The position numbers were made by a program, and so were the translations under genes. From Fibrobacteria bacterium (GTDB lineage Bacteria > Fibrobacterota > Fibrobacteria > UBA11236): a stretch of 64,000 bases of DNA. The stretch covers positions 90,107 to 154,106 of the forward strand of contig JBGTHM010000019.1 in NCBI GenBank assembly GCA_041746255.1, written 5' to 3'. Positions 18,180-39,377 of the stretch are shown one piece after another. Numbering within the stretch: the first letter of the stretch is position 1; each line of letters begins with the position of its first letter. The notes beneath the pieces were generated by a model. The model searched no databases. It saw nothing but the letters and a program-made list of their open reading frames with translations, and had not been told where the DNA came from.

Positions 18180-18509
18180 CTAGAGGTCGCGGCGGAGAGA
18201 CGTAATCAGTCCTAAAATCCCGAATGACACCGCGATAATTGCCAGCCCGCCGAATTCGCGCGCCTCCTCATGGTCGACCCAATTCGCCGGCCATGGATGG
18301 GGGTACCAGTAAATAGACCCGACCAAATAAATCAGGGCTATACCGAGTAGCACCCCTCTATGTTTGATTTTCAGTCCATAAAGCAAGGCGACAATACCGG
18401 GGAGGGCATAGATGATAACCCAAATAAGGGTATCCGGGTCGTTATATTGGAGAATTCCGCTCCACAGGCATAACCCGAATAAAAGAAAAGCAAAAATACG
18501 CGCAATCAT
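18180..18509 (-). CDS. TMEM220-family small membrane protein
   Basis: LQYNDPDTLIWVIIY and EEAREFGGLAI motifs. Confidence 0.8.
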   Translation of the reverse strand: MIARIFAFLLFGLCLWSGILQYNDPDTLIWVIIYALPGIVALLYGLKIKHRGVLLGIALIYLVGSIYWYPHPWPANWVDHEEAREFGGLAIIAVSFGILGLITSLRRDL

Positions 18510-18523
18510 GGAAGAGTCCTTCT

Positions 18524-19417
18524 TTAGGTGCTGTAAAAATACCGACCGATGAAATACCCCGGCAATATCCATAATAGTCCCAACAAGGCCCAGGGAACGG
18601 CGACCAGATTAGCCAGCATAGCCAAAACGTCTATCAGGGGAATCAGTCGTAACATGGAACCCACGGTTTTTCCGGTATTTTTCGGGGAAGGTTGAGCGGA
18701 TAGGGCACGTAACGGGCGATACAACGCCGCGAAAATTGCGGCCATTACCATTATTGCATAAAGGGCATATTCACCCTCTAACATGAAAACGGAGAAACTC
18801 AGCCAGCCAAGCCCCCAAAGAGTGAGCCCTCCCAGAAAAACCCGTAATCTTCTCCACGAAGTGCCGCGTACCTCCTCATGCGCCAGGTAGGTCACCAACA
18901 TGATATACGAGGCCAAGGAAACCAGGGCAAACGCAATACCGGTATTGAATCCAAAATATTGAGGCCAGGTTTCCCAGGTCAGCACGATTCCCGTGGCGAG
19001 GTTGCAGGCGCGACAGGCCCCCATGGATAAAGGCCCCAGGGGGCCGCCTTTGAAAATGAAATTATACAGGGCGATGCAGCCGATGAGAGCCGCAGCGGGA
19101 ATCAAGGCCAGGGGATTGGCAATAGCGATGAGAACCGTACCCGAAAAAAGCAAAGCCAACGAAAGCCGCAATGCTCCGGCACGGCTGATGGCCCCGGAGG
19201 GGATGGGGCGCGAAGGCCGCTCCCGGGCGTCCACCTTCGCGTCGGCCACATCGTTCAAGGCCATGCCTCCCATGATGAAAAAGGCCCCAGCGAAAAGCCC
19301 CAACAACAATTCCCACGACAGGCGCCCACCCCCGATTAAATACCCTGCGTAAATATTGGACATGGAGCTGAAGGCGGTGGGAATGCGCACCAGCGAAAAG
19401 AAGGCTTTGGCAGTCAC
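18524..19417 (-). CDS. eboC: UbiA-family prenyltransferase EboC
   Basis: LVRIP; GGMALNDVADAKVDARERPSRPIPSG; MGACRACNL; ebo context. Confidence 0.9.
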   Translation of the reverse strand: MTAKAFFSLVRIPTAFSSMSNIYAGYLIGGGRLSWELLLGLFAGAFFIMGGMALNDVADAKVDARERPSRPIPSGAISRAGALRLSLALLFSGTVLIAIANPLALIPAAALIGCIALYNFIFKGGPLGPLSMGACRACNLATGIVLTWETWPQYFGFNTGIAFALVSLASYIMLVTYLAHEEVRGTSWRRLRVFLGGLTLWGLGWLSFSVFMLEGEYALYAIMVMAAIFAALYRPLRALSAQPSPKNTGKTVGSMLRLIPLIDVLAMLANLVAVPWALLGLLWILPGYFIGRYFYST

Positions 19418-20790
19418 GACAGAATATGCTTTTCGATTAAGGTTTTGACCTCCATCATGGGTAACCTCTCGACGCCGGGGTTGGCTTCCGCGAAGTTGGA
19501 AATGAACAAAGGTCCGGCTTCGGGGTCGTCGACGGGCGTGCCATGGCTGCCTTTAACGAGTTCGGGCATCAAAGGAATGACGTCCATGTAATAACGGAAG
19601 CCCAGTTTTTTCTTGAGCAGGGTAAAGGCGATTTTCGCCTGGATGGATTTTTGCTTGGGATCGAGAAAGAGCTCCACCGGATCATATCCCGGTTTGCGGT
19701 GGATATCCACGCAGCGGGCAAAGTCCGGCGCTTTTTTATCGTCGAACCAATAGTAATAGGTGTACCAATTATCGGGTTCGGCCATCAGGATAACGTCTCC
19801 GGAACGCTCATGGTCCAGGTCGTAGGCGGCGATGGCATCTCCGGTAAGCACGGCGCGTTGTCCAGGCAGGTTTTCGAAAAGCGCGGCCACCTCGGCGATA
19901 CGTCCCTTGTTCTTCACATAGATATGGCAAATTTGATGATCAGATACGGCAAAAGCCTCGCTGGCGCCCGCGTCGAGCACTTCCCAATCCAAGCTGTTCC
20001 GAATAGCCAATAGGCCCGCTTGGCGCAGCACCCGGTTGGGGTGCAGGTATTTCGTAACCGAAGTGATACCGTATTCGGAAAGGATGACGATGCGGGACCC
20101 TTCGCTGGAGAAATAATCGACAAGATTCCCCACGACCTCGTCGATGTCGCGCAAATCCGCTTCGAGTTCGGGCGCGTCAGGGCCGTATTTCTGCAAACCA
20201 TAATCGAGATGCGGCAAATAAACCAGGTTGAGCGTGGGCTTGTGTTGCTCGTGTATCCACTTGGCCGATTCGGCAATCCATTTGGAGGCGCCGATACCGG
20301 CGGCGGGGCCCCAGAAATTGAAAAAGGGAAAGGCGCCCAAATCCTTCACCATGGGATCGCGGATTTCCGAAGGGTGTGTATATATATCGAAAACCTTGCG
20401 GCCGTCCGCGGGATAATGGGGGCGCGGAGTCACGCTCCAATTCACATCGGAGTACATGTTGTACCACCAGAACATTTTCGCGCAGGTAAAATCGGGGTAC
20501 GCTTTTTTCAGGCTTTCATAGATCTTTTCGCCTTGCATGAGACCGTCGTTCTGTTTCCAGAATCCGACCTCCGCCAAATCCTTGAAATACCAACCATTGG
20601 CGACGATGCCGTTTCTTGAAGGAGGAAGTCCGGTAAGCATGGCGGCTTGGCTGGAACAGGTGAGCGCGGGAAAGACTTCCTTAAGGTGAGTGCTCCATCC
20701 TGCTTCGAGGAAGCGTTTGATGCGGGGAGTATGGATACCGATTAGATTTCGAGTCAAACCGACGACATTCAAGACTACGGTATTATGCAT
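19414..20790 (-). CDS. eboF: Alkaline-phosphatase-superfamily (nucleotide pyrophosphatase) protein EboF
   Basis: VVLNVVGLT; FPALTCSSQ; GIVANGWY; FWWYNMYS; VDIHRKPGYDPVELF; VKGSHG. Confidence 0.92.
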   Translation of the reverse strand: MHNTVVLNVVGLTRNLIGIHTPRIKRFLEAGWSTHLKEVFPALTCSSQAAMLTGLPPSRNGIVANGWYFKDLAEVGFWKQNDGLMQGEKIYESLKKAYPDFTCAKMFWWYNMYSDVNWSVTPRPHYPADGRKVFDIYTHPSEIRDPMVKDLGAFPFFNFWGPAAGIGASKWIAESAKWIHEQHKPTLNLVYLPHLDYGLQKYGPDAPELEADLRDIDEVVGNLVDYFSSEGSRIVILSEYGITSVTKYLHPNRVLRQAGLLAIRNSLDWEVLDAGASEAFAVSDHQICHIYVKNKGRIAEVAALFENLPGQRAVLTGDAIAAYDLDHERSGDVILMAEPDNWYTYYYWFDDKKAPDFARCVDIHRKPGYDPVELFLDPKQKSIQAKIAFTLLKKKLGFRYYMDVIPLMPELVKGSHGTPVDDPEAGPLFISNFAEANPGVERLPMMEVKTLIEKHILS

Positions 20791-22006
20791 GCACTCTTTC
20801 CAGCTTCAAAGAAGAATGTTCCTCCACAAAACGTAGTTCTCTTGCCAGACTTTTCGCCAGGTCTTCGCGGGTAACGGGCCGGTTCTGTTCAGGAAGCACC
20901 GACCAGGTATAGGTTTCCACCTCGAAATGGGAACAAAGCGAATTATCCAGGGCATGATTCAATGCCGTAAGCATGTCTTTGCGGGTGGTGGAGATGACAT
21001 AAGCAGGGTGATCCTGATTAGGTTCGCTTTCCCAAAGGAATCCGGAAGTATCGATGGGTACATGGTAATGTACTCGCCAGGGGTGATCCCAACTGGCTTT
21101 GTCGTCGTTCAGCGCATGGGGCAAGTCGTCATAAAGGTGGATTTTCCGGCCTTCTTTGATGCGGGTTTGGTGCAAAAAACGCTCTTCCACATAGGCCAGA
21201 CGCGCTTCACGCGAAACCTTTTCGGGGTCGGCTTTGAATTCCAGGGCGCTGGAAAGTTGCATTTTCACGACGGGTATTCCGTTTGCGGTGAGTTTATCCA
21301 GGGATTTTACCGGGTTTTCGAATTGTACCGCCTGATGGCAAACATCGTAACACACACCGATATAGCGGGTTAAATCCTCCTCGCTGAAATGCATTTTGCG
21401 AGCCGCGGGACGCAGGTATTCCTCCCAAAACGCCACGACTTGCGAAATGGTCTCCAGAACACACCCGGGTTCCGGCTCCACCGCCAAACGGATGACTTTG
21501 GCATCTTGGTGCTCCAACTCCAGAGCGCATTTCGCCCACAGGATGAGGTTCTCCGCGGCTTGACGCGACTTCTCCTCCGTCCAGCCGGCACGCCAGCCCA
21601 GCGGCAAAGTGGAAATGCTGCCTTCCCCATTTTCAGGGTCCAACAAATCACTCAACATTTGCGCGCAGGTCATACTGTAATGCAGACGTTCCGGGTCGGT
21701 CCAATCCGGAGTATAAACCTTGGTTTTCACGATTTTTTCATGAAAATTGATATAGGGAAAGGCGTTGAGTGTAAACACGGACAGCCGGTTTTGCTCCAAC
21801 ACTTCCTTTATCCGGTGCTGGGTCGGGGAGTCGTGATGGCTGATCTCAGCCAATAAATTGGCATTGAACCAAAGTCCCAGGGGAAGCTGGTTTACCCCCA
21901 ACTCGTCGCGGATATGGGGGCCGAAAAACGAAATGGTTTCTACCCATTCCGAGAGGCTGTTGAGCGCATGAACATTTGTGCAGTAAGTTAGTCTGGGCTG
22001 AGTCAC
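20783..22006 (-). CDS. eboE: Metabolite traffic protein EboE (xylose-isomerase-like TIM barrel)
   Basis: LTYCTNVH; NAFPY..FH..VK..VY.PDW; EPEPGC; DVCHQAV; WRVHYHVP; EVETYTW. Confidence 0.93.
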   Translation of the reverse strand: MTQPRLTYCTNVHALNSLSEWVETISFFGPHIRDELGVNQLPLGLWFNANLLAEISHHDSPTQHRIKEVLEQNRLSVFTLNAFPYINFHEKIVKTKVYTPDWTDPERLHYSMTCAQMLSDLLDPENGEGSISTLPLGWRAGWTEEKSRQAAENLILWAKCALELEHQDAKVIRLAVEPEPGCVLETISQVVAFWEEYLRPAARKMHFSEEDLTRYIGVCYDVCHQAVQFENPVKSLDKLTANGIPVVKMQLSSALEFKADPEKVSREARLAYVEERFLHQTRIKEGRKIHLYDDLPHALNDDKASWDHPWRVHYHVPIDTSGFLWESEPNQDHPAYVISTTRKDMLTALNHALDNSLCSHFEVETYTWSVLPEQNRPVTREDLAKSLARELRFVEEHSSLKLERVHA

Positions 22007-22092
22007 GAAAACCCCCTTGGCAGCGTAAATTTACAACCGCGTCTTTCTAATTGGAAGTAAATTAATTTCTCACTCAAGAAGTTGATAATCAC

Positions 22093-23295
22093 ATGGATAC
22101 AGCGAAAAAAAACGCGTCCGGTCGTATTTCCGCCCGAGTCAAAATCCGCACCGGGAATGCTGCCGGCCCGACTTGGCAATGCCGTCCCTCGCCGCTCCTA
22201 GGCCATATGCCGCTGTACCACGGCTTCGGCGCCATGGAGGCGCTGAAAGAAATTCTGGAAAAGGCGAGCCCCGACAAGGTTTTTGTCCTCTCCGACCAGC
22301 GTATTTTCAAGCTTTATGGCGGTTATTTACTGCAACTTCTGGCGGATGCTCTACCCAAAGCCAGTAACCGGATGACTCCGGAAACCATACTTTTATCGGA
22401 AGGTGAAACCGAAAAGACCTGGAGTAACCTGGAATTCCTGTGCGAGGAACTCTTCGAGCGGGGAATTACCAAATCCTCTCTTATTCTCAATTTCGGCGGC
22501 GGGGTCATTTTAAATATCGGTGGCATGGCCGCCAGCCTGATTTACCGCGGAGTACGCTTCGTGCAAATTCCCACGACTTTGATGGCTCAAAGCGACGTCG
22601 TGGTTTCCAACAAACAAGGCATTAATTTCGCGGGCGGCAAAAATCGCCTCGGAACCTTCCACGTGCCCCTGGCGGCGGTCGCGGATCCCCGCTTCTTGGC
22701 CACTGAGCCCCGGCGCCAATTGCGCGCAGCCATGGTGGAATATTGCAAGAATGCCCTGCTGCTGGGCGGAAGCCATTACGACGAGGCTTTGGAGCATTTT
22801 GGACGCGGCGATCTCTATTCCGAAGAGCAACTCGGCCGACTCATCGAATGCAGTCTCGACCAAAAATTTTTCATCGCCGAAGCCGACCCCACCGAAAAGG
22901 CGGCGGGGCTTATGCTCGAATACGGCCATACCGTGGGTCACGCACTCGAATACCTGTCGCAAGGACGCCTCCTCCATGGCGAAGCGGTGTATCACGGCAT
23001 GAACGTGGCCGGCATGTTGTCCGAAAAAATGGGATACATGCCCGCGCAAGAACTCATGCGGCAATCCCTTCTGCTCAGCCACCTCGCGGAAATGCCGACC
23101 ATTCCCGCCGATATTTCGGTGGGACAAGTCTTGAATTGCGTACAGCGCGACAATAAAAAAGTCGGCGCCGATATTGCTTTCATCCTGGTGGAAGGAATCG
23201 GCAAAGTCCGCCGCAACGGGGATACGGTGCTCACTCCCGTTACCGAGACGCAACTCAAAGAAGCCCTGATAGAATACTGGGATGCTTTGTTATAG
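22093..23295 (+). CDS. btrC: Sugar-phosphate cyclase with 2-deoxy-scyllo-inosose synthase (BtrC/NeoC-type) signatures
   Basis: GGGVILNIGG (Asn where DHQS has Asp); AQSDVVVSNKQGIN; PRRQLRAAMVEYCKNAL; LEYGHTVGHALE; C-terminal VLTPV. These match BtrC motifs as recalled (GGGLTGNVAG, SDSVLSIKQAVN, PPRQVKAGMCELVKN, FEYGHTIGHAIE, LLTPV). Confidence 0.75.
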   Translation: MDTAKKNASGRISARVKIRTGNAAGPTWQCRPSPLLGHMPLYHGFGAMEALKEILEKASPDKVFVLSDQRIFKLYGGYLLQLLADALPKASNRMTPETILLSEGETEKTWSNLEFLCEELFERGITKSSLILNFGGGVILNIGGMAASLIYRGVRFVQIPTTLMAQSDVVVSNKQGINFAGGKNRLGTFHVPLAAVADPRFLATEPRRQLRAAMVEYCKNALLLGGSHYDEALEHFGRGDLYSEEQLGRLIECSLDQKFFIAEADPTEKAAGLMLEYGHTVGHALEYLSQGRLLHGEAVYHGMNVAGMLSEKMGYMPAQELMRQSLLLSHLAEMPTIPADISVGQVLNCVQRDNKKVGADIAFILVEGIGKVRRNGDTVLTPVTETQLKEALIEYWDALL

Positions 23296-24094
23296 CACGG
23301 GATCCCTCCCCGACGCTTTCACCCTGAAGGACGTGCGCGAGGCGCTATCCGCGTCCCTCTTCCGCGGCGTGGAATTGGTGATGACTCCTTTTTTCTTGGA
23401 GCGCGCCGATGACCCGGATTTCTGGCTGCAAGCGCGGAATGAATTCGAAAGTTCCGGCCTTACCTTCCGTAATGTGCATATGGGCAATCCTCTGCTGTTA
23501 TCCGGCGAGCCCCATGTTCCGGGCCTTGGCACGTTGGATGACGAGGGTCGCAAGCTTAAGTTTGAGACCGTGGAGCGCTCCCTGCGCGTGGCGCATTTTC
23601 TGGGAGCTCCGCATCTTACACTCACCACGGGATTGCCTGAAGCGAATGTGGAACGTCAATTGGAATACTTCGCGGATGCGCTGCGTTGCTTGGTGGAGCA
23701 AAAACCCTCCGAGGTGAAAATCCTCATCGAGCAAGAGCCGGAACACATCATCCACTCCACCGGGCAATTGCTGGACCTCTCGGCCCGCCACCCGGGCCAA
23801 GTCTTCGCCACCTTCGACGTGGGCCATAGCGAAGTGGCGGGAGAGGATGTTGCAGCTTCGGTGGAGCGATTGGGTCCGGTCATCCGTAACCTGCACTTGG
23901 AAGACATCAAGGACAGGGTGCATCGCCACCTCTTATACGGCGATGGCGATATCGATTTCGACCGAATTTTCGCGGCGGTCCGCCGCATCGATTATCAAGG
24001 GGACATCACCCCTGATCTCTACCCTTTCAAAGACGATTATTGCGCAGCCATTTCCGCCAGTGAAAAGTTTTTGCGAAGCCACCTCTCGCTTTAG
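23282..24094 (+). CDS. Sugar phosphate isomerase/epimerase (AP_endonuc_2 TIM barrel)
   Basis: LIEQEPEH; FDVGHS; HLEDIKDRVHRHLLYGDGDIDF. Confidence 0.88.
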   Translation: MLCYSTGSLPDAFTLKDVREALSASLFRGVELVMTPFFLERADDPDFWLQARNEFESSGLTFRNVHMGNPLLLSGEPHVPGLGTLDDEGRKLKFETVERSLRVAHFLGAPHLTLTTGLPEANVERQLEYFADALRCLVEQKPSEVKILIEQEPEHIIHSTGQLLDLSARHPGQVFATFDVGHSEVAGEDVAASVERLGPVIRNLHLEDIKDRVHRHLLYGDGDIDFDRIFAAVRRIDYQGDITPDLYPFKDDYCAAISASEKFLRSHLSL

Positions 24095-24227: not shown

Positions 24228-25571
24228 GTGCATGTGGTAATTCCCCTGTTATTGGCATCCTTACTGCTTTCCTCTTGCGGATCGGGTGATCGCGACGACT
24301 CCATAAGAATCCTGTGGGCCAATTTTGCCCCCGCCGACATCCTCTCCGAATTGGGGCGGCAATATGAACAGGAAACCGGTATTGCCGTCAGGGTCGTGAA
24401 AAAGTCCTGGGATGGAGCCTTCACCGACGCGACCTACGCGGAATTCCGGAATCGCGCCCAAAATTACGACATCATCATTGGGGACAGCCAATGGCTGGGT
24501 TTGGGAACCGTGGGCGGTCATTACCTGGAATTAACGGATTGGATGCACGAGAACTTGGCTTTAGATGAAATCGAGCCCGTGGCTCTGACGGGCTATAGTG
24601 AATACCCCAAAGGATCCGGGCGCTATTATGCGGTGCCTTGTGAAGCGGACGCCATGGTTTGGGCCTATCGGAAAGATTTATTCGAAGATCCCAACCACCA
24701 AAATGCGTTTCAGGAATTCCTTAGGCAAAAGGGGGTCGATAAGCCCTTTCCCCTTGCTCCTCCGGAAACCTGGGAAAACCTGAGGTTGATTGCGGCCTAT
24801 TTTAAGGAATCTATTCCCGGAATGGCGGGAGTGATGATGGTCACTTCCCGAAGTTACGATATGGCCACCATGAGTTTTCAACAAATCCTCCATGCTTTCG
24901 GCGGAAAGTTCGGTGATTACAGTACGAATGAAGTGCTTTTCGATTCCCCCGAAACAGTGAAGGCGTTGACCTTTTTTTCCGACTTGCTGGAAACGAGTAC
25001 ACCGGGCGGGAAAAACATGGGTTATTCCGAGGTTGGGTCTGAGTATATTTCCGGTCGCGCGGCCATGGTATGCAATTTTCTCGCTCTGCTCCCGTCGTTC
25101 GCAAGTCCGTCCGAAAATCCGGATTACCATGATAAAACCGGATATTTCAACTCGCCCAGCCATACTGACGAAAGCGGCGTCACCCGACGGTATACCTCTT
25201 TCGGGGGACAGGGGATGAGTGTCAACGCCCATATCAACGCTAAAAGGCAAGGGCGTGCCAAGGATTTCATAAAGTGGTTCGCCTCCCGCGAAATCCAAAG
25301 AATCTGGGCGGTCAAAGGGGGGCTGTCGGCGAATTTGGAAGTATTGAAAAGCCAGGAATTTCTGGATGCGGCGCCCTATAATCATTTGGCGGCCGAAGCC
25401 TTTTCCCTCATGCGGGATTTCTGGACGGTGCCTGAATATGACGAACTGTTGAAAGTGACCCAAAGGGAAATCACCTCGGTATACCAACAAGGCGCGGATG
25501 CAAGAGACGCTGCCGCACAGGTTCAGAAAGAGCATGAGATGATTCTCAAGCGACGAGGGCGCATCAAGTGA
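24228..25571 (+). CDS. Carbohydrate ABC transporter substrate-binding lipoprotein (CUT1)
   Basis: Lipobox LLLSSC; YDIIIGDSQWLG; YAVP...AYRKDLF; PPETWE. Confidence 0.9.
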   Translation: MHVVIPLLLASLLLSSCGSGDRDDSIRILWANFAPADILSELGRQYEQETGIAVRVVKKSWDGAFTDATYAEFRNRAQNYDIIIGDSQWLGLGTVGGHYLELTDWMHENLALDEIEPVALTGYSEYPKGSGRYYAVPCEADAMVWAYRKDLFEDPNHQNAFQEFLRQKGVDKPFPLAPPETWENLRLIAAYFKESIPGMAGVMMVTSRSYDMATMSFQQILHAFGGKFGDYSTNEVLFDSPETVKALTFFSDLLETSTPGGKNMGYSEVGSEYISGRAAMVCNFLALLPSFASPSENPDYHDKTGYFNSPSHTDESGVTRRYTSFGGQGMSVNAHINAKRQGRAKDFIKWFASREIQRIWAVKGGLSANLEVLKSQEFLDAAPYNHLAAEAFSLMRDFWTVPEYDELLKVTQREITSVYQQGADARDAAAQVQKEHEMILKRRGRIK

Positions 25572-26455
25572 ACTCCTTGGCCGGATTCTCCCCCATAGCG
25601 ATTCGCAATTTTTGCATTTTACCGGCCCTGGGCCTGCTCATATCTTTTAATGCCTTTCCTTTACTGGCTTCGTTGGTGGTCAGTTTTACCGAATACAACC
25701 CTATCATCGACTCCGCTCCGCAATATGTGGGATGGCGTAATTATCTGGATTTACTCAATAGCCCGCGCGACGAAGTATGGGCCGCGTTTGCCCGCACTGG
25801 GGCATTGGTGGTTTTTGCGGTAGGATTGCAAACCGTTTTGGGGTTCGGGCTTGCCCTGCTTCTGCAACGACGCTTTTATGGCCAGGGTGTGCTGGTGTCC
25901 CTGCTATTGATACCCATGATGCTTTCTCCCGCGATCATGGGGTCATTTTGGCGTTACATGTTGAATGCGGATTATGGAGTGATAAACTGGCTGCTCGATT
26001 CGAGTTTGAGTTGGGGCGGGTCCACGCCTCTGGCGTTTTGGGGAGTGGTGTTGGCGGAAACCTGGATGTGGACGCCTTTCATGTTGCTGCTCTCGCTGGC
26101 CGGATTGCAAAGCATCCCTCCGTCGCTTTACGAAGCGGCTGCGGTGGATCGCGCCGGCGCCTGGTTCCGTTTTAGGCATATCACGCTACCGCTGGTGCTT
26201 CCCATGCTGCTTTTGGGAATCGTCTTCCGGGCCATGGACACCTTCCGTCTTTTCGATACCGCCATGGTTATGAATGGAAATTTGGAGGGCCAACCGACGA
26301 CTTTCGTAAGCGTGTTGCTGCATTCCCGCGGGTTCGGAGGAAGCCTTTCTTTGGGCGATGCCACGGCACTGGCTTACCTCCTCTTAGTGGTGGCCATAGC
26401 CCTTTCCGTATTGGTGCTTCGGCTGCTGGAAAGAGTACGGGAGGCCCGCCATTGA
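25568..26455 (+). CDS. Carbohydrate ABC transporter permease
   Basis: WMWTPFMLLLSLAGLQSIPPSLYEAAAVDRAG EAA loop. Confidence 0.93.
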   Translation: MNSLAGFSPIAIRNFCILPALGLLISFNAFPLLASLVVSFTEYNPIIDSAPQYVGWRNYLDLLNSPRDEVWAAFARTGALVVFAVGLQTVLGFGLALLLQRRFYGQGVLVSLLLIPMMLSPAIMGSFWRYMLNADYGVINWLLDSSLSWGGSTPLAFWGVVLAETWMWTPFMLLLSLAGLQSIPPSLYEAAAVDRAGAWFRFRHITLPLVLPMLLLGIVFRAMDTFRLFDTAMVMNGNLEGQPTTFVSVLLHSRGFGGSLSLGDATALAYLLLVVAIALSVLVLRLLERVREARH

Positions 26456-27303
26456 AAAATTCGCCGGTCGGTCGTATCACCTTGCTTCTCATTTACGCGA
26501 TGCTGTCATTGACTCCCATTCTTTGGATGGTTCTGACCGCGGTCAAGCTCCCCGCGGATACGGTGGCTTTTCCGCCACGGTTCGTCCCCGCAGGTTCCGC
26601 TCCGGAAGGGTCCTTTCTTTATCGTTTCTCTTGGACCAATTTCGAAAGGCTATTCGCCGATACCGAAACCATGCATTACCTCTGGAATTCCATATTGGTG
26701 GCTTCTTTCAGTACTCTTGCATCCGTGGCATTCGGAACCTTGGCGGGATACGCCTTCAGCCGCTTTCCCTTTCGCGGTTCGCAAAATTGGCTTTTCTTCA
26801 TTCTTTCCACCCGGATGTTGCCGCCTCTGGCGGTGGCGGTTCCCATCAGTTTCATGTATAGCCGCCTGGCTTTATTCGACACGCGTTTCGGATTGATAAT
26901 CCTGTATACCTGCTTCAACCTTTCCTTCAGCACATGGATGATGAAGCTGTTTTTCGACGAGATTCCCACTGATTACGAAGAGGCGGCGATGTTGGATGGC
27001 CATTCCCGGCCGTCGGCTTTTTTCCGCATCGTGCTTCCACAGGCAGTGAGCGGGTTGTTGGCCACCTCGATTTTTTGTCTCATCACGTCTTGGAACGAGT
27101 ACTCCTTCGCCCTCACGCTTACCAGTACCGACGCAGTAACCATGCCGGTACGGATCCATGCCATCATCGGGGACGTCGGCGTGATTCCGTGGGGATTGTT
27201 GGCCGCGGCCTCCCTGTTATTCCTGGCTCCGATTCTCATTTTCAGCTTACTCATGCGTAAACATTTGGTACAAGGCATCAGCTTCGGAGCGGTGAGGGAA
27301 TGA
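26452..27303 (+). CDS. Carbohydrate ABC transporter permease
   Basis: RMLPP; DEIPTDYEEAAMLDG; SWNEY. Confidence 0.93.
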   Translation: MKNSPVGRITLLLIYAMLSLTPILWMVLTAVKLPADTVAFPPRFVPAGSAPEGSFLYRFSWTNFERLFADTETMHYLWNSILVASFSTLASVAFGTLAGYAFSRFPFRGSQNWLFFILSTRMLPPLAVAVPISFMYSRLALFDTRFGLIILYTCFNLSFSTWMMKLFFDEIPTDYEEAAMLDGHSRPSAFFRIVLPQAVSGLLATSIFCLITSWNEYSFALTLTSTDAVTMPVRIHAIIGDVGVIPWGLLAAASLLFLAPILIFSLLMRKHLVQGISFGAVRE

Positions 27304-27551
27304 AAGACAAAGGAGAAATCTTATACCGTCGGCTTGATCGGGGCTCTATGGCCGTGATGGCCGCGGGTATCGGCATGGTACTGCAGCCTTGGATTCACCT
27401 GCTTTTCCGCTTCGGTTTCGCTGTGATTCTGATGGGTTTGTTTTTCTATTTGTTCGCCTCACGTCTGTCCACCTTTTCAGGCCGTACCGATGATGGCCAA
27501 GAAGCCGCCTCTGAATCTGAAAAAAAAATGAATAGGGTCGCGAATCCATGA
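27300..27551 (+). CDS. Small 2-TM membrane protein within the ABC operon
   Basis: ATGA overlaps on both sides; GIGMVLQPW...FAVILMGLFFYLFAS hydrophobic. Confidence 0.65.
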   Translation: MKDKGEILYRRLDRGSMAVMAAGIGMVLQPWIHLLFRFGFAVILMGLFFYLFASRLSTFSGRTDDGQEAASESEKKMNRVANP

Positions 27552-28672
27552 GCGGAGTGGCGCTGGAATTCGAAGGCCTGGGGAAGCGCTTCGGCGACTT
27601 TGCGGCCGTGCATCCGCTCAACCTTTCGGTGGCTCCCGGCGAATTGCTCGTTTTGCTCGGGCCCAGCGGTTGCGGGAAAACCACGACCTTGCGCATGACG
27701 GCGGGTTTGGAGTTTCCCAGCGAGGGGCGAATCCTGTTCGACGGAAAGGACGTAACCCGCAAGCCGCCGGGTGAGCGGGATGTCGCATTCGTTTTCCAGT
27801 TGTACGCCTTGTATCCGCACATGACCGTAGGGGAGAATGTGGCTTTTCCCCTTCGCACGCAAGGGCGATCAGCCGTGGAAGCCAGCCGTGCCGCTTCCGC
27901 CATGCTCGAGCGGCTGGGTCTCGGCATGCTGGCGGGATCCAAGCCCAGGCAACTCTCCGGAGCCGACCAGCAGCGCGCGGCCTTGGCGCGGGCGTTAGTG
28001 CGGAAACCGCGGGCCTTTTTGCTGGATGAGCCGTTGAATACGCTCGATTCGGCCCAACGTGAATTCTTGCGGGAGCAAATCCGCGAGTTGCACAAAGAGA
28101 TGGAAGCCACCACCCTTTTCGTGACCCATGATCAGGCCGAGGCCCTGGCACTGGGCGATCGGATCGCAGTGATGGGCGAAGGAAAGATTTTGCAATGTGG
28201 CCCGCCCAGAGAAGTCTATGAAAACCCCAACAGCCTTTTCGTGGCCAATTTTTTGGGCACACCCGGAATGAACTTTCTCTTCGCAAGCCGAAGCGGCGAA
28301 GCGGTGCGTGTACAGGGCGCCGATTGGATGGTAAGGGTGTCCGACCTTCCCGACTCCAAAGCCGGGCTCGGCGAAGCTTGGACGAACAAAGACGGCCTTT
28401 ATCTGGGCATACGGCCAGAACACGTCTTGCTCACCGGAGAGGGTGCGCCGTGTCAAGTGGAGCATACCGAGATGCTGGGAGCTTATAGCCTGGTCGATTT
28501 GCGCGCGGGTAAAGTCCGGCTCAAGGCGCGCGTTCCCGGTGGCCGCCGTTACCGGGAAGGCGATACCGTGGGAGTGAGCTTTCATCCCTCCGGCTGCCGC
28601 TGGTTCGACGCCGTCGAAGGCAACGCGCTGCCCTGGCATACCCAGGAGGTTAAATGCACGCCTTCTCGGTAG
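27548..28672 (+). CDS. ABC transporter ATPase (MalK-like, TOBE), variant signature
   Basis: GPSGCGKTT; LSGADQQR; LLDEP; VTHDQ. Confidence 0.93.
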   Translation: MSGVALEFEGLGKRFGDFAAVHPLNLSVAPGELLVLLGPSGCGKTTTLRMTAGLEFPSEGRILFDGKDVTRKPPGERDVAFVFQLYALYPHMTVGENVAFPLRTQGRSAVEASRAASAMLERLGLGMLAGSKPRQLSGADQQRAALARALVRKPRAFLLDEPLNTLDSAQREFLREQIRELHKEMEATTLFVTHDQAEALALGDRIAVMGEGKILQCGPPREVYENPNSLFVANFLGTPGMNFLFASRSGEAVRVQGADWMVRVSDLPDSKAGLGEAWTNKDGLYLGIRPEHVLLTGEGAPCQVEHTEMLGAYSLVDLRAGKVRLKARVPGGRRYREGDTVGVSFHPSGCRWFDAVEGNALPWHTQEVKCTPSR

Positions 28673-29691
28673 AAAATCTGAATTGTTCCTATCCGGACCG
28701 GCGAGCGGGAATGTTTCGGCGGCCTTCCGCCGATGCGGTCCACAACGTGCTTTCGAATATCACCTTCACGACCGAACCGGGCGAATTATTGGTTATTCTC
28801 GGAGAAGGAGGCGCCGGCAAAAGCACCTTGCTCCGTGCAATGGCGGGGTTGTTAAAGCCATTGTCGGGTCGCATACTTGAAAACGGACGGGATATCACGG
28901 CGATTCCGCCCCACTTGCGCGATATGGCGATGGTTTTCCAGAATTTTTCCTTGTACCCGCGCATGACGGTAGCCGAGAACCTGGCCTTTCCCTTGAAAGG
29001 CGGATCCTTCCCCCTTTCCGAAATCCAAAAAAGGGTGGAGGAAACGGCCGGTACCTTGGGTCTCTCCGAAAAGCTGGGACGTTACGCTCCGGAATTGTCC
29101 GGGGGTGAATTACAACGCGTGGCATTGGGCCGGGCGCTAATCCGAAAGCCCAAGCTCTTTTTGTTGGACGAGCCTCTCACCAATCTCGATGCCAAATTAC
29201 GTGAACAAATGCAGACCTATATCCGCCGGCTGCAAAAATACCTGCAGACCACCCTCCTATTCGTCACTCACGATGCAGAAGAAGCCATGGGAATGGCCGA
29301 CCGGGTCATGGTGATGCGAAAAGGCGAAGTGATGCAAATCGCCGCGCCCGAGGAAATCTATCGTAACCCCGCGAACTCCTATGTTGCGGGCATACTGGGA
29401 AGCCCGGTAATCAATCTCCTCGCGCCGGAAGAAGCTTCCCGATGGGGTTTGCCGGACAATTCGGGTCGGATATTGGGAGTTCGGCCCGAACACGTGACGG
29501 TCACCGCCAGTCTCCAAGGCCGGGCCCGAGTCCGTGTTTGCCAGCACCTAGGGCATGCGCTGGTGCTGACCGTGGAGAGAGACGAGGTGCGCCTACGAGC
29601 ATTAGTGGAGCCCTTTTCGGGACTGAAAGAGGGTGACGCGGTGGACGTTAACGTGGATTTCAGGAATATTCTTCTCCTGGAACCGAGATGA
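28654..29691 (+). CDS. Second ABC transporter ATPase (MalK-like); start codon uncertain
   Basis: GEGGAGKST; LSGGELQR; LLDEPLTNLD. Confidence 0.92.
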   Translation: MHAFSVENLNCSYPDRRAGMFRRPSADAVHNVLSNITFTTEPGELLVILGEGGAGKSTLLRAMAGLLKPLSGRILENGRDITAIPPHLRDMAMVFQNFSLYPRMTVAENLAFPLKGGSFPLSEIQKRVEETAGTLGLSEKLGRYAPELSGGELQRVALGRALIRKPKLFLLDEPLTNLDAKLREQMQTYIRRLQKYLQTTLLFVTHDAEEAMGMADRVMVMRKGEVMQIAAPEEIYRNPANSYVAGILGSPVINLLAPEEASRWGLPDNSGRILGVRPEHVTVTASLQGRARVRVCQHLGHALVLTVERDEVRLRALVEPFSGLKEGDAVDVNVDFRNILLLEPR

Positions 29692-29934: not shown

Positions 29935-31356
29935 ATGTACCGTGCCATGTTGTTCGGAGCAGTAATATTACCGATGGTTTTCTTGAATCCGGTCGAAGCC
30001 GCATTTAAACGCTGGGTTCCTTCGGCCGATCTGACTACGGCGCCGCAAACTATTTCAGCGACGGGTTTCTATACCAATATTGCTACGCAACAGGTTACGA
30101 GTGAAGCGGTGTATTTTGAAGTGAACTCCGCTTTATGGAGTGATCATGCTAAGAAAAAGCGATGGATCATCCTGCCTGCCGGTCAAAAGATTACTTACAA
30201 CGACACCACCGATTTTTACGTCTATCCTGCGGGTACCTTTTTCATCAAAAACTTCTATCACGAAACCGTTCCAGGCGATGCCTCGACCCAGCGGATATGG
30301 GAAACCCGTATTCTGGTCAACAAAACGAGTGAATCCGATGCCACCCATCAGGAATGGTTCGGATACAGCTATAGGTGGAAACGCAATGGTTCGGACGCGG
30401 ATTTGGTCAAGGGTGATGCCGAGAGGGATACCTTGCATTTCTATCCGAATGGACTGGGAGCCGCATCCAAAGTCAGAAAGTGGGAGTTTCCCAGTTCCCA
30501 AAATTGCAATCAATGCCATGTCACCGGGGCAGACTACTTCGACTTGAAAACCAGGTCGGTCCTGGGCTTTTTCCCGGCTCAACAGAACATGCCGGCTCCC
30601 CTGCAGCCCGCCATCAATCAATTGATCTACCTTTTCAATAAGGGAGTTTTCAATTTGCAGCCGGACCCAGCCAAGGCGGCCCGTTGGTACGCCATCGATG
30701 ATGAATCCGCGCCTCTGGATAATCGGGCGCGGGCCTATATCGCCGCCAATTGCTCCGGCTGCCATGGAGCCCGTGGCATCGAAAATGGGCTTATCGAAGG
30801 TCAAGAACTCAATTATGATTTCCATACCGGAACGCCCGCCATGGAGTTCCGGGATCGCTACTTAACCTACGACTATGGAATAGACAACTCCAAGCTGGTA
30901 GTTGCCGGAGCTCCGGAAAAATCCATCATCCTCCATCGTCAAAAACTGCGCAAACCCGACTATGTACCATCGGGATTACCCTTTGCAGATGACGAAGAGA
31001 ATTTCGACCCTCTCTGGTCGCAGCAAATGCCGCCATTGGCGGTGTACGAGGAGGATACGACCGCCGTGCGTTTCCTGACCCAATGGATTAGCGGAATGGA
31101 GCCACTTCCGGCTTCCATACACGGACATCGCGCACCGTCGGTCTTTCAGAAGCCGGTATTACAGAATCGCCATCTTTACCTGCCCGCAGATCTGGTGTCC
31201 AAGCCCGGCCTTGCCGTGCAGGTGGTTGATGTCTCCGGTCGCAAGGTAGCCGTGGAAAAAATGGGTGAGGGCGTCTACCGTCTGGCCGCGTCGCTGCCGC
31301 GGGGATTATACCTATTCAAAGTGGGGAATCTCAGCTTTACGCATTACATCTTTTGA
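29935..31356 (+). CDS. Secreted dihaem c-type cytochrome (SO2930-like) with T9SS-like C-terminal domain, paralog 1
   Basis: Signal peptide; VNSALWSDHAKKKRWI; WETRIL; CNQCH; ARAYIAANCSGCH; MPPLA; CTD DVSGRKV...LPRGLYLFKV. Confidence 0.75.
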   Translation: MYRAMLFGAVILPMVFLNPVEAAFKRWVPSADLTTAPQTISATGFYTNIATQQVTSEAVYFEVNSALWSDHAKKKRWIILPAGQKITYNDTTDFYVYPAGTFFIKNFYHETVPGDASTQRIWETRILVNKTSESDATHQEWFGYSYRWKRNGSDADLVKGDAERDTLHFYPNGLGAASKVRKWEFPSSQNCNQCHVTGADYFDLKTRSVLGFFPAQQNMPAPLQPAINQLIYLFNKGVFNLQPDPAKAARWYAIDDESAPLDNRARAYIAANCSGCHGARGIENGLIEGQELNYDFHTGTPAMEFRDRYLTYDYGIDNSKLVVAGAPEKSIILHRQKLRKPDYVPSGLPFADDEENFDPLWSQQMPPLAVYEEDTTAVRFLTQWISGMEPLPASIHGHRAPSVFQKPVLQNRHLYLPADLVSKPGLAVQVVDVSGRKVAVEKMGEGVYRLAASLPRGLYLFKVGNLSFTHYIF

Positions 31357-31443
31357 TTTTTTTCGATGGATAATTTGGAAAGATACCATCATAATAGTGA
31401 ACGCTGGTTTTGGTCCAAGTCTTTAAGAGGAGAGAAAAAACCT

Positions 31444-32841
31444 ATGAAACGTGGCATGCTTTTCGGAGCGATGTTATTCCCGATTGCGTTGTTGAATTCC
31501 GCTGATGCTGCTTTCAAGCCTTGGACTCCATCGGAGGATTTGACCACCGCGCCGCAAACCATTTCGGCGACGGGTTTCTATACCAATATCGCCACGCAGG
31601 CGGTTACACCCGAGGCGGTTTATTTCGAGGTGAACTCCGCTTTGTGGAGCGACCATGCCAAGAAAAAGCGGTGGATTATCCTGCCCGCGGGAAAAAAGGT
31701 GACTTATAACGACAGCACCGATTTTTACGATTATCCTGAGGGCACCTATTTCATTAAAAACTTCTATCACGAAATCGTTCCGGGAGATGCCGCGACCCTG
31801 CGGATTTGGGAAACCCGTATTCTGGTGAACAAAGTAGACGCACAGGATTTAGACCATCAGAATTGGTACGGATATAGCTACAAGTGGAGACCAAATGGAT
31901 TGAACGCCGATTTGGTGGTGGGAGAGGATGGACTGGACGACACCTTGCATTTTTTTCCGAATGGAAAATCAGCGGCCGCCAAAGTTCGGAAATGGAAGTT
32001 CCCCGGCGCTGCCGCATGCAATACTTGCCACGGCACGGAAAATACCGGTAGTGAATTAAAGCCCCGTTCCGTTCTGGGATTTTTCCCGGCCCAACAGAAT
32101 ATGCCGGCCCCCTTGCAGCCCGCCATCAATCAATTGGTCTATCTTTTCAACAAAGGGGTATTCGATCGCCAACCGAACCCTGCCCTGGCGCCCCGTTGGT
32201 ATGCCATCGACGATGAGTCCGCGCTTATCGATAATCGGGCGCGGGCCTATATCGCCTCAAATTGCTCCGGTTGCCATGGCGAGAGGGGAATTCAAAGCAA
32301 TCTGGCTCAAGGCGTATATGTGAAATATGATTTCCATACCGGTGTGCCGGCGATGGAATTACAGGATTACCAAATGGGCGATGATTTCGGTATCCCTGGG
32401 GCAAGGCTGTTGGTAGCGGGTGAACCCGAAAAATCGCTTATTCTGTATCGTCAAACAGTACGCAATCCGGATTTTGACCCCACGGCGGAGTTCGGAAACT
32501 TTGACCTGATGGGGGACCAAATGCCCCCCATAGCGGTGTTCGAACAGGACACCACCGCGATAAAATATCTGACCCAATGGATAAGCCAATTGCCCGTCGC
32601 CTCCATCGCACGTCGCGCGCCATCCGTATTCCAAAAGCCGGTATTGCAAAACCGCCAACTATTCCTCCCTGCCGATTTGGCCGCCAAGCCCGGGCTCAAC
32701 CTGCAGGTTATCGATGCCGCCGGCCGCAAAGTGGCCGTGGAGAAAGTGGGGGACGGGGTATATCGACTGGCGGCTTCGCTGCCTCGCGGTTTATACATCT
32801 TTAAAGCCGGGAACCTGAGTTTTACGCACTATCTTTTCTAA
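31444..32841 (+). CDS. Secreted dihaem c-type cytochrome, paralog 2
   Basis: Start reassigned to ATG 31444 (RBS GAGGAG, aligns with paralogs); CNTCH, CSGCH, MPPIA; same CTD. Confidence 0.75.
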   Translation: MKRGMLFGAMLFPIALLNSADAAFKPWTPSEDLTTAPQTISATGFYTNIATQAVTPEAVYFEVNSALWSDHAKKKRWIILPAGKKVTYNDSTDFYDYPEGTYFIKNFYHEIVPGDAATLRIWETRILVNKVDAQDLDHQNWYGYSYKWRPNGLNADLVVGEDGLDDTLHFFPNGKSAAAKVRKWKFPGAAACNTCHGTENTGSELKPRSVLGFFPAQQNMPAPLQPAINQLVYLFNKGVFDRQPNPALAPRWYAIDDESALIDNRARAYIASNCSGCHGERGIQSNLAQGVYVKYDFHTGVPAMELQDYQMGDDFGIPGARLLVAGEPEKSLILYRQTVRNPDFDPTAEFGNFDLMGDQMPPIAVFEQDTTAIKYLTQWISQLPVASIARRAPSVFQKPVLQNRQLFLPADLAAKPGLNLQVIDAAGRKVAVEKVGDGVYRLAASLPRGLYIFKAGNLSFTHYLF

Positions 32842-32892
32842 TGAAGCCGAGTTTAGCTATACCTTGAATCCATAAAAGGAGTGAACCGAATT

Positions 32893-34290
32893 ATGAAGCG
32901 TGCCATGTTGTTCGCAGCAGTACTATTGCCGATTGCCCTATTGAATCCGGCCGATGCCGCCTTCAAGCCTTGGGTTCTTTCGAATGACTTAACCACAGCG
33001 CCGCAAACCCTTTCGGCGACGGGTTTCTATACCAATATTGGAACAAAAACGGTGACCCCTGAGGCGGTTTATTTCGAGGTGAACTCCGCTTTGTGGAGCG
33101 ATCACGCTAAGAAAAAGCGATGGATTATTCTGCCCGCCGGAAAAAAAGTGACTTATGACGACAGCACCGATTTTTACGAGTACCCCGAGGGTACCTACCT
33201 CATCAAGAACTTCTATCACGAAATCGTTCCGGGTGACGCCTCGACCGAACGGATATGGGAAACCCGTATTCTCGCCAACAAAGATGAGGAAGGTGGTGTT
33301 CAGAATTGGTTCGGTTACAGCTATAGGTGGAGAGCCAACGGGTCGGACGCCGATTTGGTAGTGGATGACAATGGAATATTCGATACGCTGCGCTATTATC
33401 CGAATGGAATGGGGGCGGCCTCCAAGATTCGGAAATGGACATTCCCAAGTGCCCGAGCCTGCAATGATTGCCACAACTCCATTGACTTTGGTACCGGTGA
33501 AAAGACACGCTCGGTGCTGGGTTTCTTTCCCGCGCAGCAAAATAAACCAGCCCCTTTACAGCCGGCCATTAACCAATTGGTTTATCTGTTCAACAAGGGT
33601 GTATTCGATCGGCAGCCGGACCCCGCTAAGGCGCCCCGTTGGTATGCCATCGATGATGAATCCGGGCCTCTGGATAATCGGGCGCGGGCCTATATCGCCT
33701 CGAACTGTTCCGGCTGTCACGGAACCCGGGCGGTTACGGTTGGCGTAGTACCCTGGACCGACGTAAACTACGACTTTCATAGGGGAGTGCCAGAGATTGA
33801 ATTCCAAAACTTTCAGATAATGGATAACTTCGGCATCGAAGACGCGAAATTGGTATACGCCGGTTATCCGGAAAAGTCGACCCTACTCCATCGGCAAATT
33901 GTGCGTGCGCCGGAATATAATGTCGACTCATCAATATATTGGAATTCAGATAGACCGGCGGAAACCATGCCACCTTTGGCTGTTTTCGAACAGGATACTA
34001 CTGCGATCAAATACCTTTCGCAATGGATTAAGGAAATGCCTCCGGTAGCATCCATTGCCCGTCGCACCCCCTCGGTGTTCCAAAAGCCGGTATTGCAAAA
34101 CCGCCACCTTTTCCTGCCCGCAGATTTGGCATCCAAGCCCGGTTTTAACCTACAAGTTATCGATGCCTCCGGTCGGAAAGTCGCCGTGGATAAAGTGGGT
34201 GAAGGGGTTTACCGGCTTTCGACTTCGCTGCCGCGCGGATTGTATATCTTCCGAGCCGGTAACGTCAGTTTCACGCATTATCTTTTCTAA
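32893..34290 (+). CDS. Secreted dihaem c-type cytochrome, paralog 3
   Basis: Start ATG 32893 aligns with paralogs; CNDCH, CSGCH, MPPLA; same CTD. Confidence 0.75.
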   Translation: MKRAMLFAAVLLPIALLNPADAAFKPWVLSNDLTTAPQTLSATGFYTNIGTKTVTPEAVYFEVNSALWSDHAKKKRWIILPAGKKVTYDDSTDFYEYPEGTYLIKNFYHEIVPGDASTERIWETRILANKDEEGGVQNWFGYSYRWRANGSDADLVVDDNGIFDTLRYYPNGMGAASKIRKWTFPSARACNDCHNSIDFGTGEKTRSVLGFFPAQQNKPAPLQPAINQLVYLFNKGVFDRQPDPAKAPRWYAIDDESGPLDNRARAYIASNCSGCHGTRAVTVGVVPWTDVNYDFHRGVPEIEFQNFQIMDNFGIEDAKLVYAGYPEKSTLLHRQIVRAPEYNVDSSIYWNSDRPAETMPPLAVFEQDTTAIKYLSQWIKEMPPVASIARRTPSVFQKPVLQNRHLFLPADLASKPGFNLQVIDASGRKVAVDKVGEGVYRLSTSLPRGLYIFRAGNVSFTHYLF

Positions 34291-34380: not shown

Positions 34381-35247
34381 ATGAATCCAGAAAAAATCCA
34401 GACGCTGTTGGCACAATGGCTTTCGTCCCGACTTAAGCCTGAGTCAATGCAATGGCTGCGGGAAAAAGCCGCGGCCCTGAAAGCGGATGCTTCCGGAAAA
34501 GCCTTCTTTGCGATTTTCAGCGCGGCGGCAAGGCATGCGGGAAAGGAGACCTTGGCCTTATCGGCTACCGATCTGGCCTTCGCGCAGGACTTGGTCCCGG
34601 GATGGAATCCAGCGAATTGGACTTGCATTGAGGCGGCGCGTGCCCATATCCTGCTCGCCCTTCCCTATGAGCCAGCCGAAAATTATGCCCGAATCTTGGA
34701 CCAAGCCTTGGAAACCGCGGATTTGGGAGAAACCTTGGCTTTGCAAAAATCTTTGCCGCTATTACCGCATCCCCTCAAGCACTATGACCGGGCCTGCCTG
34801 GGAGCGCGTAGTAATATGAAGGCGGTATTCGAGGCCGTGGCCTTGGACAACCCCTTTCCGGCTCGATATTTCGACGAAGGCGCCTGGAATCAACTGGTGC
34901 TGAAGGCGATTTTCGTTGAGGCCCCCTTAAGACGGATATACGGAATTGATGAACGCGCGAATCCGATATTGGCGCGTATGCTGGTGGATTATGCCCATGA
35001 AAGATGGGCGGCTGGCCGAGTCATTACCCCGGAGCTGTGGCGCTCGGTGGGGCCTTTCGCGGATAAAAGTATGCTGGAAGATTTGCAAAAGGTGGTGGAA
35101 ACCGGTACATTACCGGAGAAACGTGCCGGAGCCTTGGCGCTTAAAGCCTGTCCGCTTCCGGAGGCCCAATCCCTGCTCAGCGCGCAGGGGGCTTGGGTGA
35201 AAGAAGTGGAAGAGGGAAGTATCAATTGGGAGAATCTGGAATCATGA
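34381..35247 (+). CDS. eboA: EboA domain protein
   Basis: RSNMKAVFEAVALDNPFPARYFDEGAWNQLVLKAIF...RMLVDYAHERWAAGR. Confidence 0.92.
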   Translation: MNPEKIQTLLAQWLSSRLKPESMQWLREKAAALKADASGKAFFAIFSAAARHAGKETLALSATDLAFAQDLVPGWNPANWTCIEAARAHILLALPYEPAENYARILDQALETADLGETLALQKSLPLLPHPLKHYDRACLGARSNMKAVFEAVALDNPFPARYFDEGAWNQLVLKAIFVEAPLRRIYGIDERANPILARMLVDYAHERWAAGRVITPELWRSVGPFADKSMLEDLQKVVETGTLPEKRAGALALKACPLPEAQSLLSAQGAWVKEVEEGSINWENLES

Positions 35248-39325: not shown

Positions 39326-39377
39326 GGACTTCTCCTGTACATGCTATTCAGGCTGGGGACGAAATGGGAAAAATGGG

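Follow-up and report, generated by a model that had tools for sequence, protein, structure and literature searches.

A 2-deoxy-scyllo-inosose synthase-type cyclase and a TIM-barrel partner at the place of EboD in ebo clusters of Fibrobacterota

Among bacterial biosynthetic clusters that are still unexplained, the ebo genes rank with the most widespread. According to the main text of a recent preprint (bioRxiv 10.64898/2026.05.21.724671), they determine the synthesis of thallusin, a green-seaweed morphogen, with eboB, eboC, eboE and eboF as their core, and the quinoline ring of thallusin is derived from a cyclitol and aspartate. EboD, the DEI synthase, belongs to the superfamily of sugar phosphate cyclases, and its product, as cited in PMC12904256 and in the same preprint, is the 4-epimer of 2-deoxy-scyllo-inosose (DOI). 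Actinomycetota are described in that text as having no eboD and as carrying ino1-3 instead, so the replacement of the cyclitol-entry enzyme has a precedent. The main text of the preprint lists eleven phyla of bacteria, Fibrobacterota not being among them, and contains no match to "Fibrobacter", "DOIS" or "2-deoxy-scyllo", although the supplements may show Fibrobacterota or eboD-less clusters. Our literature search retrieved no text linking a DOI synthase (DOIS)-type enzyme to ebo or to Fibrobacterota. Here, we describe an ebo locus from a Fibrobacteria bacterium (GCA_041746255.1), located on a stretch of 64,000 nucleotides (contig JBGTHM010000019.1, positions 90,107 to 154,106; hereafter the window), in which the gene at 22093..23295 (+), adjacent to eboE, encodes a cyclase of 400 aa, hereafter referred to as P0001, that resembles DOIS rather than EboD.

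We propose that P0001 is an NAD+- and metal-dependent cyclase of the BtrC lineage which, together with a TIM-barrel partner encoded immediately downstream, feeds a cyclitol to the Ebo enzymes and has displaced EboD, and we put the probability of this reading at about 0.7. The original prediction, made from the nucleotide sequence, had described this frame as encoding a DOIS-like cyclase distinct from EboD and AroB, on the basis of five motifs. The frame is open over its 400 codons and all five motifs were located in it: GGGVILNIGG (residues 135-144), SDVVVSNKQGIN (residues 167-178), RQLRAAMVEYCKNAL (residues 208-222), LEYGHTVGHALE (residues 275-286) and LTPV (residues 380-383). P0001 matched the Pfam DHQ_synthase N-terminal domain (PF01761, E 1.5e-31) and the DHQS_C domain (PF24621, E 5.4e-23). 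Its top match among the PDB chains searched with phmmer was BtrC, the DOIS of the butirosin pathway (2d2x/2gru, 184 bits, E 3.5e-53; HMMER alignment identity about 38%), which outscored the best 3-dehydroquinate synthase (DHQS, 145 bits), ValA (88 bits) and DDGS (64 bits); the scoring against these families that the original prediction had proposed therefore came out in favour of BtrC. To judge from their E-values, the motif and domain matches lie far above chance. The AlphaFold model of P0001, based on 51 sequences, had a mean predicted local distance difference test score (pLDDT) of 92.3, with the first 28 or so residues, which are weakly conserved, being disordered. The four top Foldseek matches of this model were BtrC chains (2gru and 2d2x), with target TM-scores of up to 0.91. 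Thus, BtrC has the same fold as P0001 and is its best match both in sequence and in structure.

The assignment was extended to individual residues by selecting 21 signature positions from the alignment of P0001 with BtrC, numbered by hand, in which residue n of BtrC corresponds to residue n+33 of P0001. P0001 is identical to BtrC at all 21 positions (E105, K108, N141, D168, K174, Q175, N178, K183, N184, E216, K219, N220, K258, E268, G272, E276, Y277, H279, H283, H295 and K355 in the numbering of P0001), and the equivalents of Lys141, Glu183, Glu235, Glu243, His246, His250 and His262 of BtrC are all conserved. The DHQS sequences, including the AroB of the same genome, displayed five differences (N141D, Q175T, N220Y/H, G272R and E276N), whereas canonical EboD displayed seven (N141D, Q175N, N220V, K258H, E276D, Y277F and K355E) in 19 of the 19 proteins. 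AroB (TIGR01357) shares with P0001 the fold, the NAD+/metal chemistry and the Pfam domains. However, Gly272 and Glu276 of P0001 occupy the positions of an arginine and an asparagine of DHQS, which we take to be the arginine that binds the carboxylate of 3-deoxy-D-arabino-heptulosonate 7-phosphate and the asparagine of the LNxGHT motif; in BtrC, as in P0001, the glutamate of EYGHT replaces this asparagine. The motifs listed in the original prediction for the other two families were accurate, as those given for EboD (GGGAxxD, NDSGVGVKNG and DFGHWxAH) match the EboD sequences of 23 canonical ebo loci, and those given for DHQS match the AroB of this genome.

P0001 occupies the position of the cyclase in an ebo cluster and its best match in NCBIfam is aroB (TIGR01357), so that it might be thought to be either an EboD orthologue that has diverged strongly or an additional dehydroquinate synthase. 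Nevertheless, its aroB score (247.2 bits) is below the cut-off of 305, and it is also well below the cut-off of 333 (164.8 bits) with NF004852, a model that bears the name "PRK06203, 3-dehydroquinate synthase" and is the EboD model, with which canonical EboD proteins score 552 and 566 bits. Furthermore, aroB is also the best model for the BtrC-like P0140 (256 bits) and for P0125 from Clostridium (277 bits), a protein named DOI synthase by NCBI; DOIS-like proteins match aroB best because NCBIfam has no DOIS model. When canonical EboD was used to search PDB, BtrC ranked last of the 16 matches (87 bits), the opposite of the ranking obtained with P0001, and EboD and P0001 matched each other with only about 100-120 bits.

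The phylogenetic analyses led to the same placement. In the 78-row maximum-likelihood tree, EboD formed a clade of its own (support of 100 in the Shimodaira-Hasegawa-like approximate likelihood ratio test, SH-aLRT), and all the rows with the DOIS signature, together with the Fibrobacterota group (96), fell into one clade (100), with the DHQS rows outside it. The 72-row tree showed the same division, and in this tree P0140, which served as a proxy for BtrC (263 bits to 2d2x), branched within the DOIS-like clade (SH-aLRT 95), with the sub-clade of P0001, which also contains P0121, apart from the BtrC-like group. A search by motif for a representative of BtrC among the 150 nearest clusters had yielded partial matches only. 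The approximately unbiased (AU) test rejected the joining of the Fibrobacterota group with EboD (delta lnL 34.4, p-AU 0.0024). P0001 therefore clades with neither EboD nor AroB, in agreement with the original prediction, which had named phylogeny as a check. Two cluster representatives adjoining the Fibrobacterota group, P0193 and P0214, have lost most of the catalytic residues, including the metal ligands, and on this basis may be inactive paralogues.

The genome of the window contains two PF01761 matches, P0001 and an AroK-AroB fusion of 551 aa. The gene for this fusion is located on another contig (G000:C81, 919..2574 (-)), where it adjoins a shikimate-dehydrogenase-like gene (aroE), and the protein carries the LNYGHT and GGGVVGD motifs; its score with NF004852 is 213 bits. 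P0001 is thus not the sole AroB homologue of the genome; the original prediction had stated that it would be refuted if P0001 were the only one. Given the scores, the residues at positions 272 and 276, the rejected topology and the housekeeping enzyme beside aroE, we consider it highly improbable that P0001 is either an EboD or a second DHQS, and the identification of a DOIS-like protein distinct from both was borne out.

The cyclase gene is divergently adjacent to eboE (20783..22006 (-)), which encodes a TIM-barrel "metabolite traffic protein EboE" (NF035939, 384.9 bits; cut-off 250), and its end overlaps by 14 nt with the next gene (23282..24094 (+)), encoding a xylose-isomerase-like TIM barrel of 270 aa (Pfam AP_endonuc_2, 88 bits), hereafter referred to as TIM270. 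An EboE-anchored scan, in which each species was represented by a single genome, yielded 79 loci, which comprised 31 loci of the Fibrobacterota type with a DOIS-like cyclase near eboE, 23 loci from other phyla with a canonical EboD near eboE, and 25 loci with no cyclase within 9 kb. Of the 31 loci with a DOIS-like gene, 29 had TIM270 next to it, the two misses being at contig ends, and none of the 23 canonical EboD genes had it as a neighbour. The swap concerns two genes as a module, those of the cyclase and the TIM barrel. The order eboC-eboF-eboE / cyclase-TIM was conserved in every locus long enough to tell. The close homologues of P0001 (55-88% identity) are from Fibrobacterota metagenome-assembled genomes (MAGs) or from MAGs with apparently wrong labels. 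Some contigs carrying a Fibrobacterota-type cluster (loci L003/L036, L019/L045, L047 and L051) are labelled "uncultured Bifidobacteriales" or "Bifidobacterium" and are probably from mislabelled MAGs.

We then considered a sample of 296 Fibrobacterota genomes. EboE was present in 37, all from one order (32/32 in family f1, which includes the genome of the window, and 5/6 in family f2), and 35 of these 37 had a DOIS-like gene, always on the same contig as eboE and divergently adjacent to it, with this adjacency spanning three genus-rich lineages at 44-100% identity. An EboD above the cut-off was found only in the other two EboE-positive genomes (G246 and G247), beside their eboE. The 259 EboE-negative genomes yielded no DOIS-like gene at E<=1e-60 and no EboD above the cut-off; one of them (G197) had a sub-cut-off match to NF004852 (205 bits), which we attribute to the housekeeping AroB because the score is in the same range as that of the AroK-AroB of the window genome. 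All 35 genomes with the DOIS-like gene yielded an EboB and 34 of them an EboA (the one without it is 83% complete), with eboA and eboB usually at a locus separate from that of the cyclase. The best-supported explanation for this order of Fibrobacterota is a non-orthologous displacement of EboD by the DOIS-lineage cyclase and its TIM partner. The original prediction had suggested searching genomes for DOIS genes next to ebo genes, and this adjacency was observed in 35/35 of the genomes carrying the DOIS-like gene.

Some of these genomes deviate in their details. In the most remote relative among Fibrobacterota, a 1.6-Mb genome (G245, locus L052/L110, 3803..8935, 44% identity), the cyclase-TIM pair heads an operon, in which it precedes a PabB-like gene fusing glutamine amidotransferase and chorismate-binding parts and a gene for a DegT-family aminotransferase; a search of the surrounding 9 kb revealed no eboC-like gene. 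Two eboA-eboB pairs occur in several genomes (G250, G259, G260, G262, G263, G268 and others), in which some of the matches to eboB have an in-frame TGA, so that these copies may be duplicates in decay or may stem from errors of assembly.

The remaining ebo genes of the window are distributed over two sites. Upstream on the minus strand, eboF (19414..20790 (-)) encodes a type I phosphodiesterase of the alkaline-phosphatase superfamily (PF01663, 194 bits), with 48-54% identity to the EboF of canonical clusters, and it is followed by an eboC-like gene (18524..19417 (-)) for a divergent UbiA prenyltransferase (PF01040), which scores 128 bits with the EboC model NF035940 (cut-off 250) and 129 bits with the SCO3242 model NF045897 (cut-off 260). 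The presence of this gene beside eboF is conserved in the Fibrobacterota loci, as is the UbiA fold. The other two genes are located 11 kb downstream, past the genes for a sugar transporter and for three diheme cytochromes: eboA (34381..35247 (+); NF035938 EboA_domain, 165 bits, cut-off 50; NF035937, 284 bits, cut-off 320) and eboB (35193..36161 (+)), encoding a TatD-like hydrolase (PF01026) with 58% identity (382 bits) to its counterpart in an ebo cluster from Polyangiaceae. The identity of this EboB to those of canonical clusters outside the phylum is 53-75%, and to the EboB of G246 it is 46%. With eboA, eboB, eboC-like, eboE and eboF found, all the ebo functions are therefore present except the canonical eboD. 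The idea of an ebo variant with a new cyclase was thus sustained, although the original prediction had overlooked the TIM-barrel partner and the eboA and eboB genes (34381..36161).

It had also noted that no aminotransferase or dehydrogenase of 2-deoxystreptamine synthesis lies nearby, and we found no DegT-type aminotransferase or Zn-dehydrogenase in positions 13950 to 44116. P0001 differs in this respect from the DOIS of 2-deoxystreptamine clusters, and it differs from them also in being part of an ebo cluster and in having a TIM partner. A role for a DOIS-type enzyme outside aminoglycoside synthesis, as originally put forward, is supported by the ebo context. However, such proteins were not in themselves a novelty, since the DOIS signature was present in 98 of the 149 cluster representatives nearest P0001, and proteins with this signature are already common outside aminoglycoside producers.

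Profile searches of PDB with the TIM270 family retrieved TM0416, UlaE, MJ1311, Art22, IolI and AsbF, none of them close. The solved relatives include keto-sugar epimerases and isomerases (TM0416, UlaE and IolI) and an aromatising dehydratase (AsbF), and TIM270 is likely, on grounds of homology, to be a keto-cyclitol isomerase, epimerase or dehydratase. In the pathway that we envisage, the cyclase would convert glucose-6-phosphate into DOI, the TIM-barrel partner would isomerise, epimerise or dehydrate this keto-cyclitol, and the Ebo enzymes would turn the resulting compound into a prenylated metabolite derived from a cyclitol, of the same type as saccharoquinoline and thallusin. The ring would be aromatised en route and the stereocentre that distinguishes DOI from the product of EboD would be erased; with aromatisation of the ring in the proposed downstream chemistry, DOI and its 4-epimer could end in one and the same product. 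EboD and P0001 belong to the same superfamily and share the pathway step and the place in the cluster, and their products probably differ by one stereocentre, whereas the two enzymes form separate clades and EboD has no TIM270-type partner.

The same replacement might involve other chemistry, in which the Ebo enzymes receive the exact canonical intermediate, for example because the cyclase would itself form 4-epi-DOI, from mannose-6-phosphate, or because the TIM partner turns DOI into the product of EboD. Being orthologous to those of canonical clusters, the downstream Ebo enzymes may depend on the canonical stereoisomer; keto-sugar epimerases and isomerases are the solved structures nearest to the partner, and its strict linkage with the DOIS-like gene, together with its absence next to EboD, would fit a correcting step. 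By contrast, P0001 agrees at 21/21 positions with BtrC, a glucose-6-phosphate enzyme, whereas EboD differs at seven of them, and C4 of DOI is not adjacent to the carbonyl, which on chemical reasoning would put it beyond the reach of a simple enolisation-type epimerase. We regard this variant as rather unlikely, and prefer the supply of a DOI-derived cyclitol to the Ebo enzymes.

A third way for the ebo pathway to obtain its ring precursor, in addition to the EboD and ino routes, is supported by these results. The original prediction had also expected a third route; the replacement of EboD held, but the route does not lead to a different class of cyclitol, being chemically close to the canonical one because the published product of EboD, as cited in the preprint and in PMC12904256, is 4-epi-DOI. 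The Actinomycetota-type clusters offer the nearest parallel, as eboD is likewise replaced in them and, according to the text of the preprint (10.64898/2026.05.21.724671), small TIM barrels are found alongside; they carry a SCO3242-family prenyltransferase, and their entry enzyme is an inositol-3-phosphate synthase and not a DHQS-fold cyclase as in Fibrobacterota. In two Streptomyces loci (L203 and L204), a TIM barrel adjoins eboA-B-E-F. This protein was considered as an orthologue of TIM270 and dropped, as the two share 28% identity over about 170 residues.

Several points weigh against the proposed reading. We know of no enzymology for any member of the DOIS-like clade outside aminoglycoside synthesis, and DOI as the product is therefore an extrapolation from the identity of the active site. 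The functions of the signature residues are our assumption, including those of Glu183, His246 and His262 of BtrC, which we take to be the metal ligands. The structural margin of BtrC over DHQS is small (Foldseek E 9e-28 versus 4.5e-26), because both share one fold. The trees are from quick searches with SH-aLRT support only, and their rows are cluster representatives nearest P0001, a biased selection in which many sequences deviate in composition; they contain no proven DOIS, EEVS, DDGS, EVS or aminoDHQS, so that BtrC is represented through the PDB scores and the P0140 proxy. The eboC-like protein falls below both equivalog cut-offs, and the end product may therefore differ from thallusin. The 35 genomes with the DOIS-like gene are close kin, so the swap corresponds to one or a few events rather than 35 independent ones, and when the unpublished genome G257, which is one of them, is left out the count is 34/36. 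Finally, of the 80 loci from neighbouring DOIS-like sub-clades, 18 have the cyclase gene with a TIM270 homologue immediately behind it and no ebo genes, and the pair can therefore work independently of ebo.

The pair might instead be an independent module that merely lies beside ebo, supplying a polyhydroxybenzene or a cyclitol for another use or acting with the adjacent transporter, with the ebo ring coming from elsewhere. The ebo-free pairs have a Zn-dehydrogenase or TatD-like, pyridoxal phosphate (PLP)-enzyme and B12-radical-SAM (S-adenosylmethionine) genes as neighbours; a sugar-type ABC (ATP-binding cassette) transporter (24228..29691 (+)) follows the pair in the window and in 3 of 19 Fibrobacterota loci; and three Planctomycetota MAGs with a Fibrobacterota-like EboE have an ordinary AroB as their best cyclase match. 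Against this stand the divergent adjacency to eboE in 35/35 genomes and the perfect either/or relationship with EboD in the 37 EboE-positive genomes, neither enzyme being found above the cut-off in the EboE-negative ones. We consider the independence of the pair from the ebo genes beside it to be unlikely, and retain the displacement of EboD as the explanation for the Fibrobacterota loci.

Outside Fibrobacterota, the sister of the Fibrobacterota group was P0121, from a Planctomycetota MAG (support 98-99), and its gene is followed by a TIM270 homologue (35% identity). The genome encodes an EboE (270 bits) and an EboC-like protein below the cut-off (182 bits), and the only further cyclase is AroB-like; a locus search with P0121 returned its own contig only. 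The three Planctomycetota MAGs mentioned above, G001, G002 and G003 (loci L041, L057 and L037, respectively), have EboE proteins 49-51% identical to that of the window, closer than any canonical EboE. Their best match to P0001 is the ordinary AroB; at the end of a contig of G003 there is, in addition, a fragment of a cyclase (L104).

In the sister sub-clades, a Zn-dehydrogenase gene follows the cyclase-TIM pair in four of the five annotated paired loci, from Desulfosporosinus (L172), Holophaga (L174), Terracidiphilus and Lachnospiraceae (the others being L164 and L192). In anaerobes, the three genes make up a conserved triad, which in Desulfosporosinus adjoins genes for a UbiD decarboxylase and for a molybdoenzyme resembling pyrogallol hydroxytransferase, a hint of a connection with trihydroxybenzene metabolism. 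In Kitasatospora, Streptomyces and a Pseudonocardiaceae MAG, the pair is followed by a TatD-like gene. The Kitasatospora locus (L179, 5471..14409) comprises genes for a PLP enzyme, the DOIS-like cyclase, the TIM barrel, the TatD-like hydrolase, a PLP decarboxylase-like protein, a B12-radical-SAM protein and an alcohol dehydrogenase, and 10 further actinomycete loci identified by tblastn share with it only the cyclase, TIM-barrel and TatD-like genes.

We tentatively suggest, as a possibility that we would not yet favour, that the cyclase and the TIM barrel constitute a portable module leading from glucose-6-phosphate to a polyhydroxylated ring on its way to aromatisation, that is, a source of hydroxybenzenes independent of shikimate. 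Such a module would have been plugged into an ebo/thallusin-type pathway in Fibrobacterota and in the Planctomycetota lineage, into the Zn-dehydrogenase set in anaerobes, and into the cluster with PLP and B12-radical-SAM enzymes in Kitasatospora and Streptomyces, and most of the very large DOIS-like clade would then be unrelated to aminoglycosides.

These clusters extend the ebo pathway to Fibrobacterota, and screens requiring eboD would overlook ebo clusters of the DOIS type. The proposed displacement of EboD also constitutes a natural swap, in which an enzyme whose active site is that of DOI synthase stands in for the committed cyclase and which could be used to probe the requirements of the downstream enzymes. 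If the pathway still works, either the Ebo enzymes are indifferent to the C4 stereocentre or the TIM partner corrects C4. The ebo context would thus provide a first testable physiological role for proteins with the DOIS signature outside aminoglycoside producers.

The other features of the window can be described briefly. The divergent eboE and cyclase genes are separated by 86 nt (22007..22092), presumed to be a shared control region; the corresponding gap is of 101-410 nt in the 35 Fibrobacterota genomes. A sigma-70 scan of 22007..22092 found nothing, and a promoter and terminator scan of positions 21900-24400 gave results no better than those for shuffled sequences. A gene for a TMEM220-like small membrane protein (18180..18572 (-); PF15071, 56.6 bits) overlaps the eboC-like gene, and tblastn detected it in relatives only at the same-genus locus L003/L036. 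The ABC transporter downstream of TIM270 consists of a binding protein, two permeases, an 83-aa open reading frame and two ATPases. The Fibrobacterota loci in which it follows the pair are L006, L010 and L015, on the same contigs as L025, L059 and L033, and its membership in the module is uncertain. It is followed by three paralogues in tandem, encoding diheme c-type cytochromes of the SO2930 family (29935..34290 (+); TIGR03806, 143-162 bits, all under the cut-off of 313), the second of which has a weak match to a sorting domain of the type IX secretion system. Directly after eboB, a complete resistance-nodulation-division (RND) efflux set (36191..41845 (-)) encodes an AcrB-type permease, a membrane-fusion adaptor and a TolC-like channel, and this set could export a lipophilic product of the ebo pathway.

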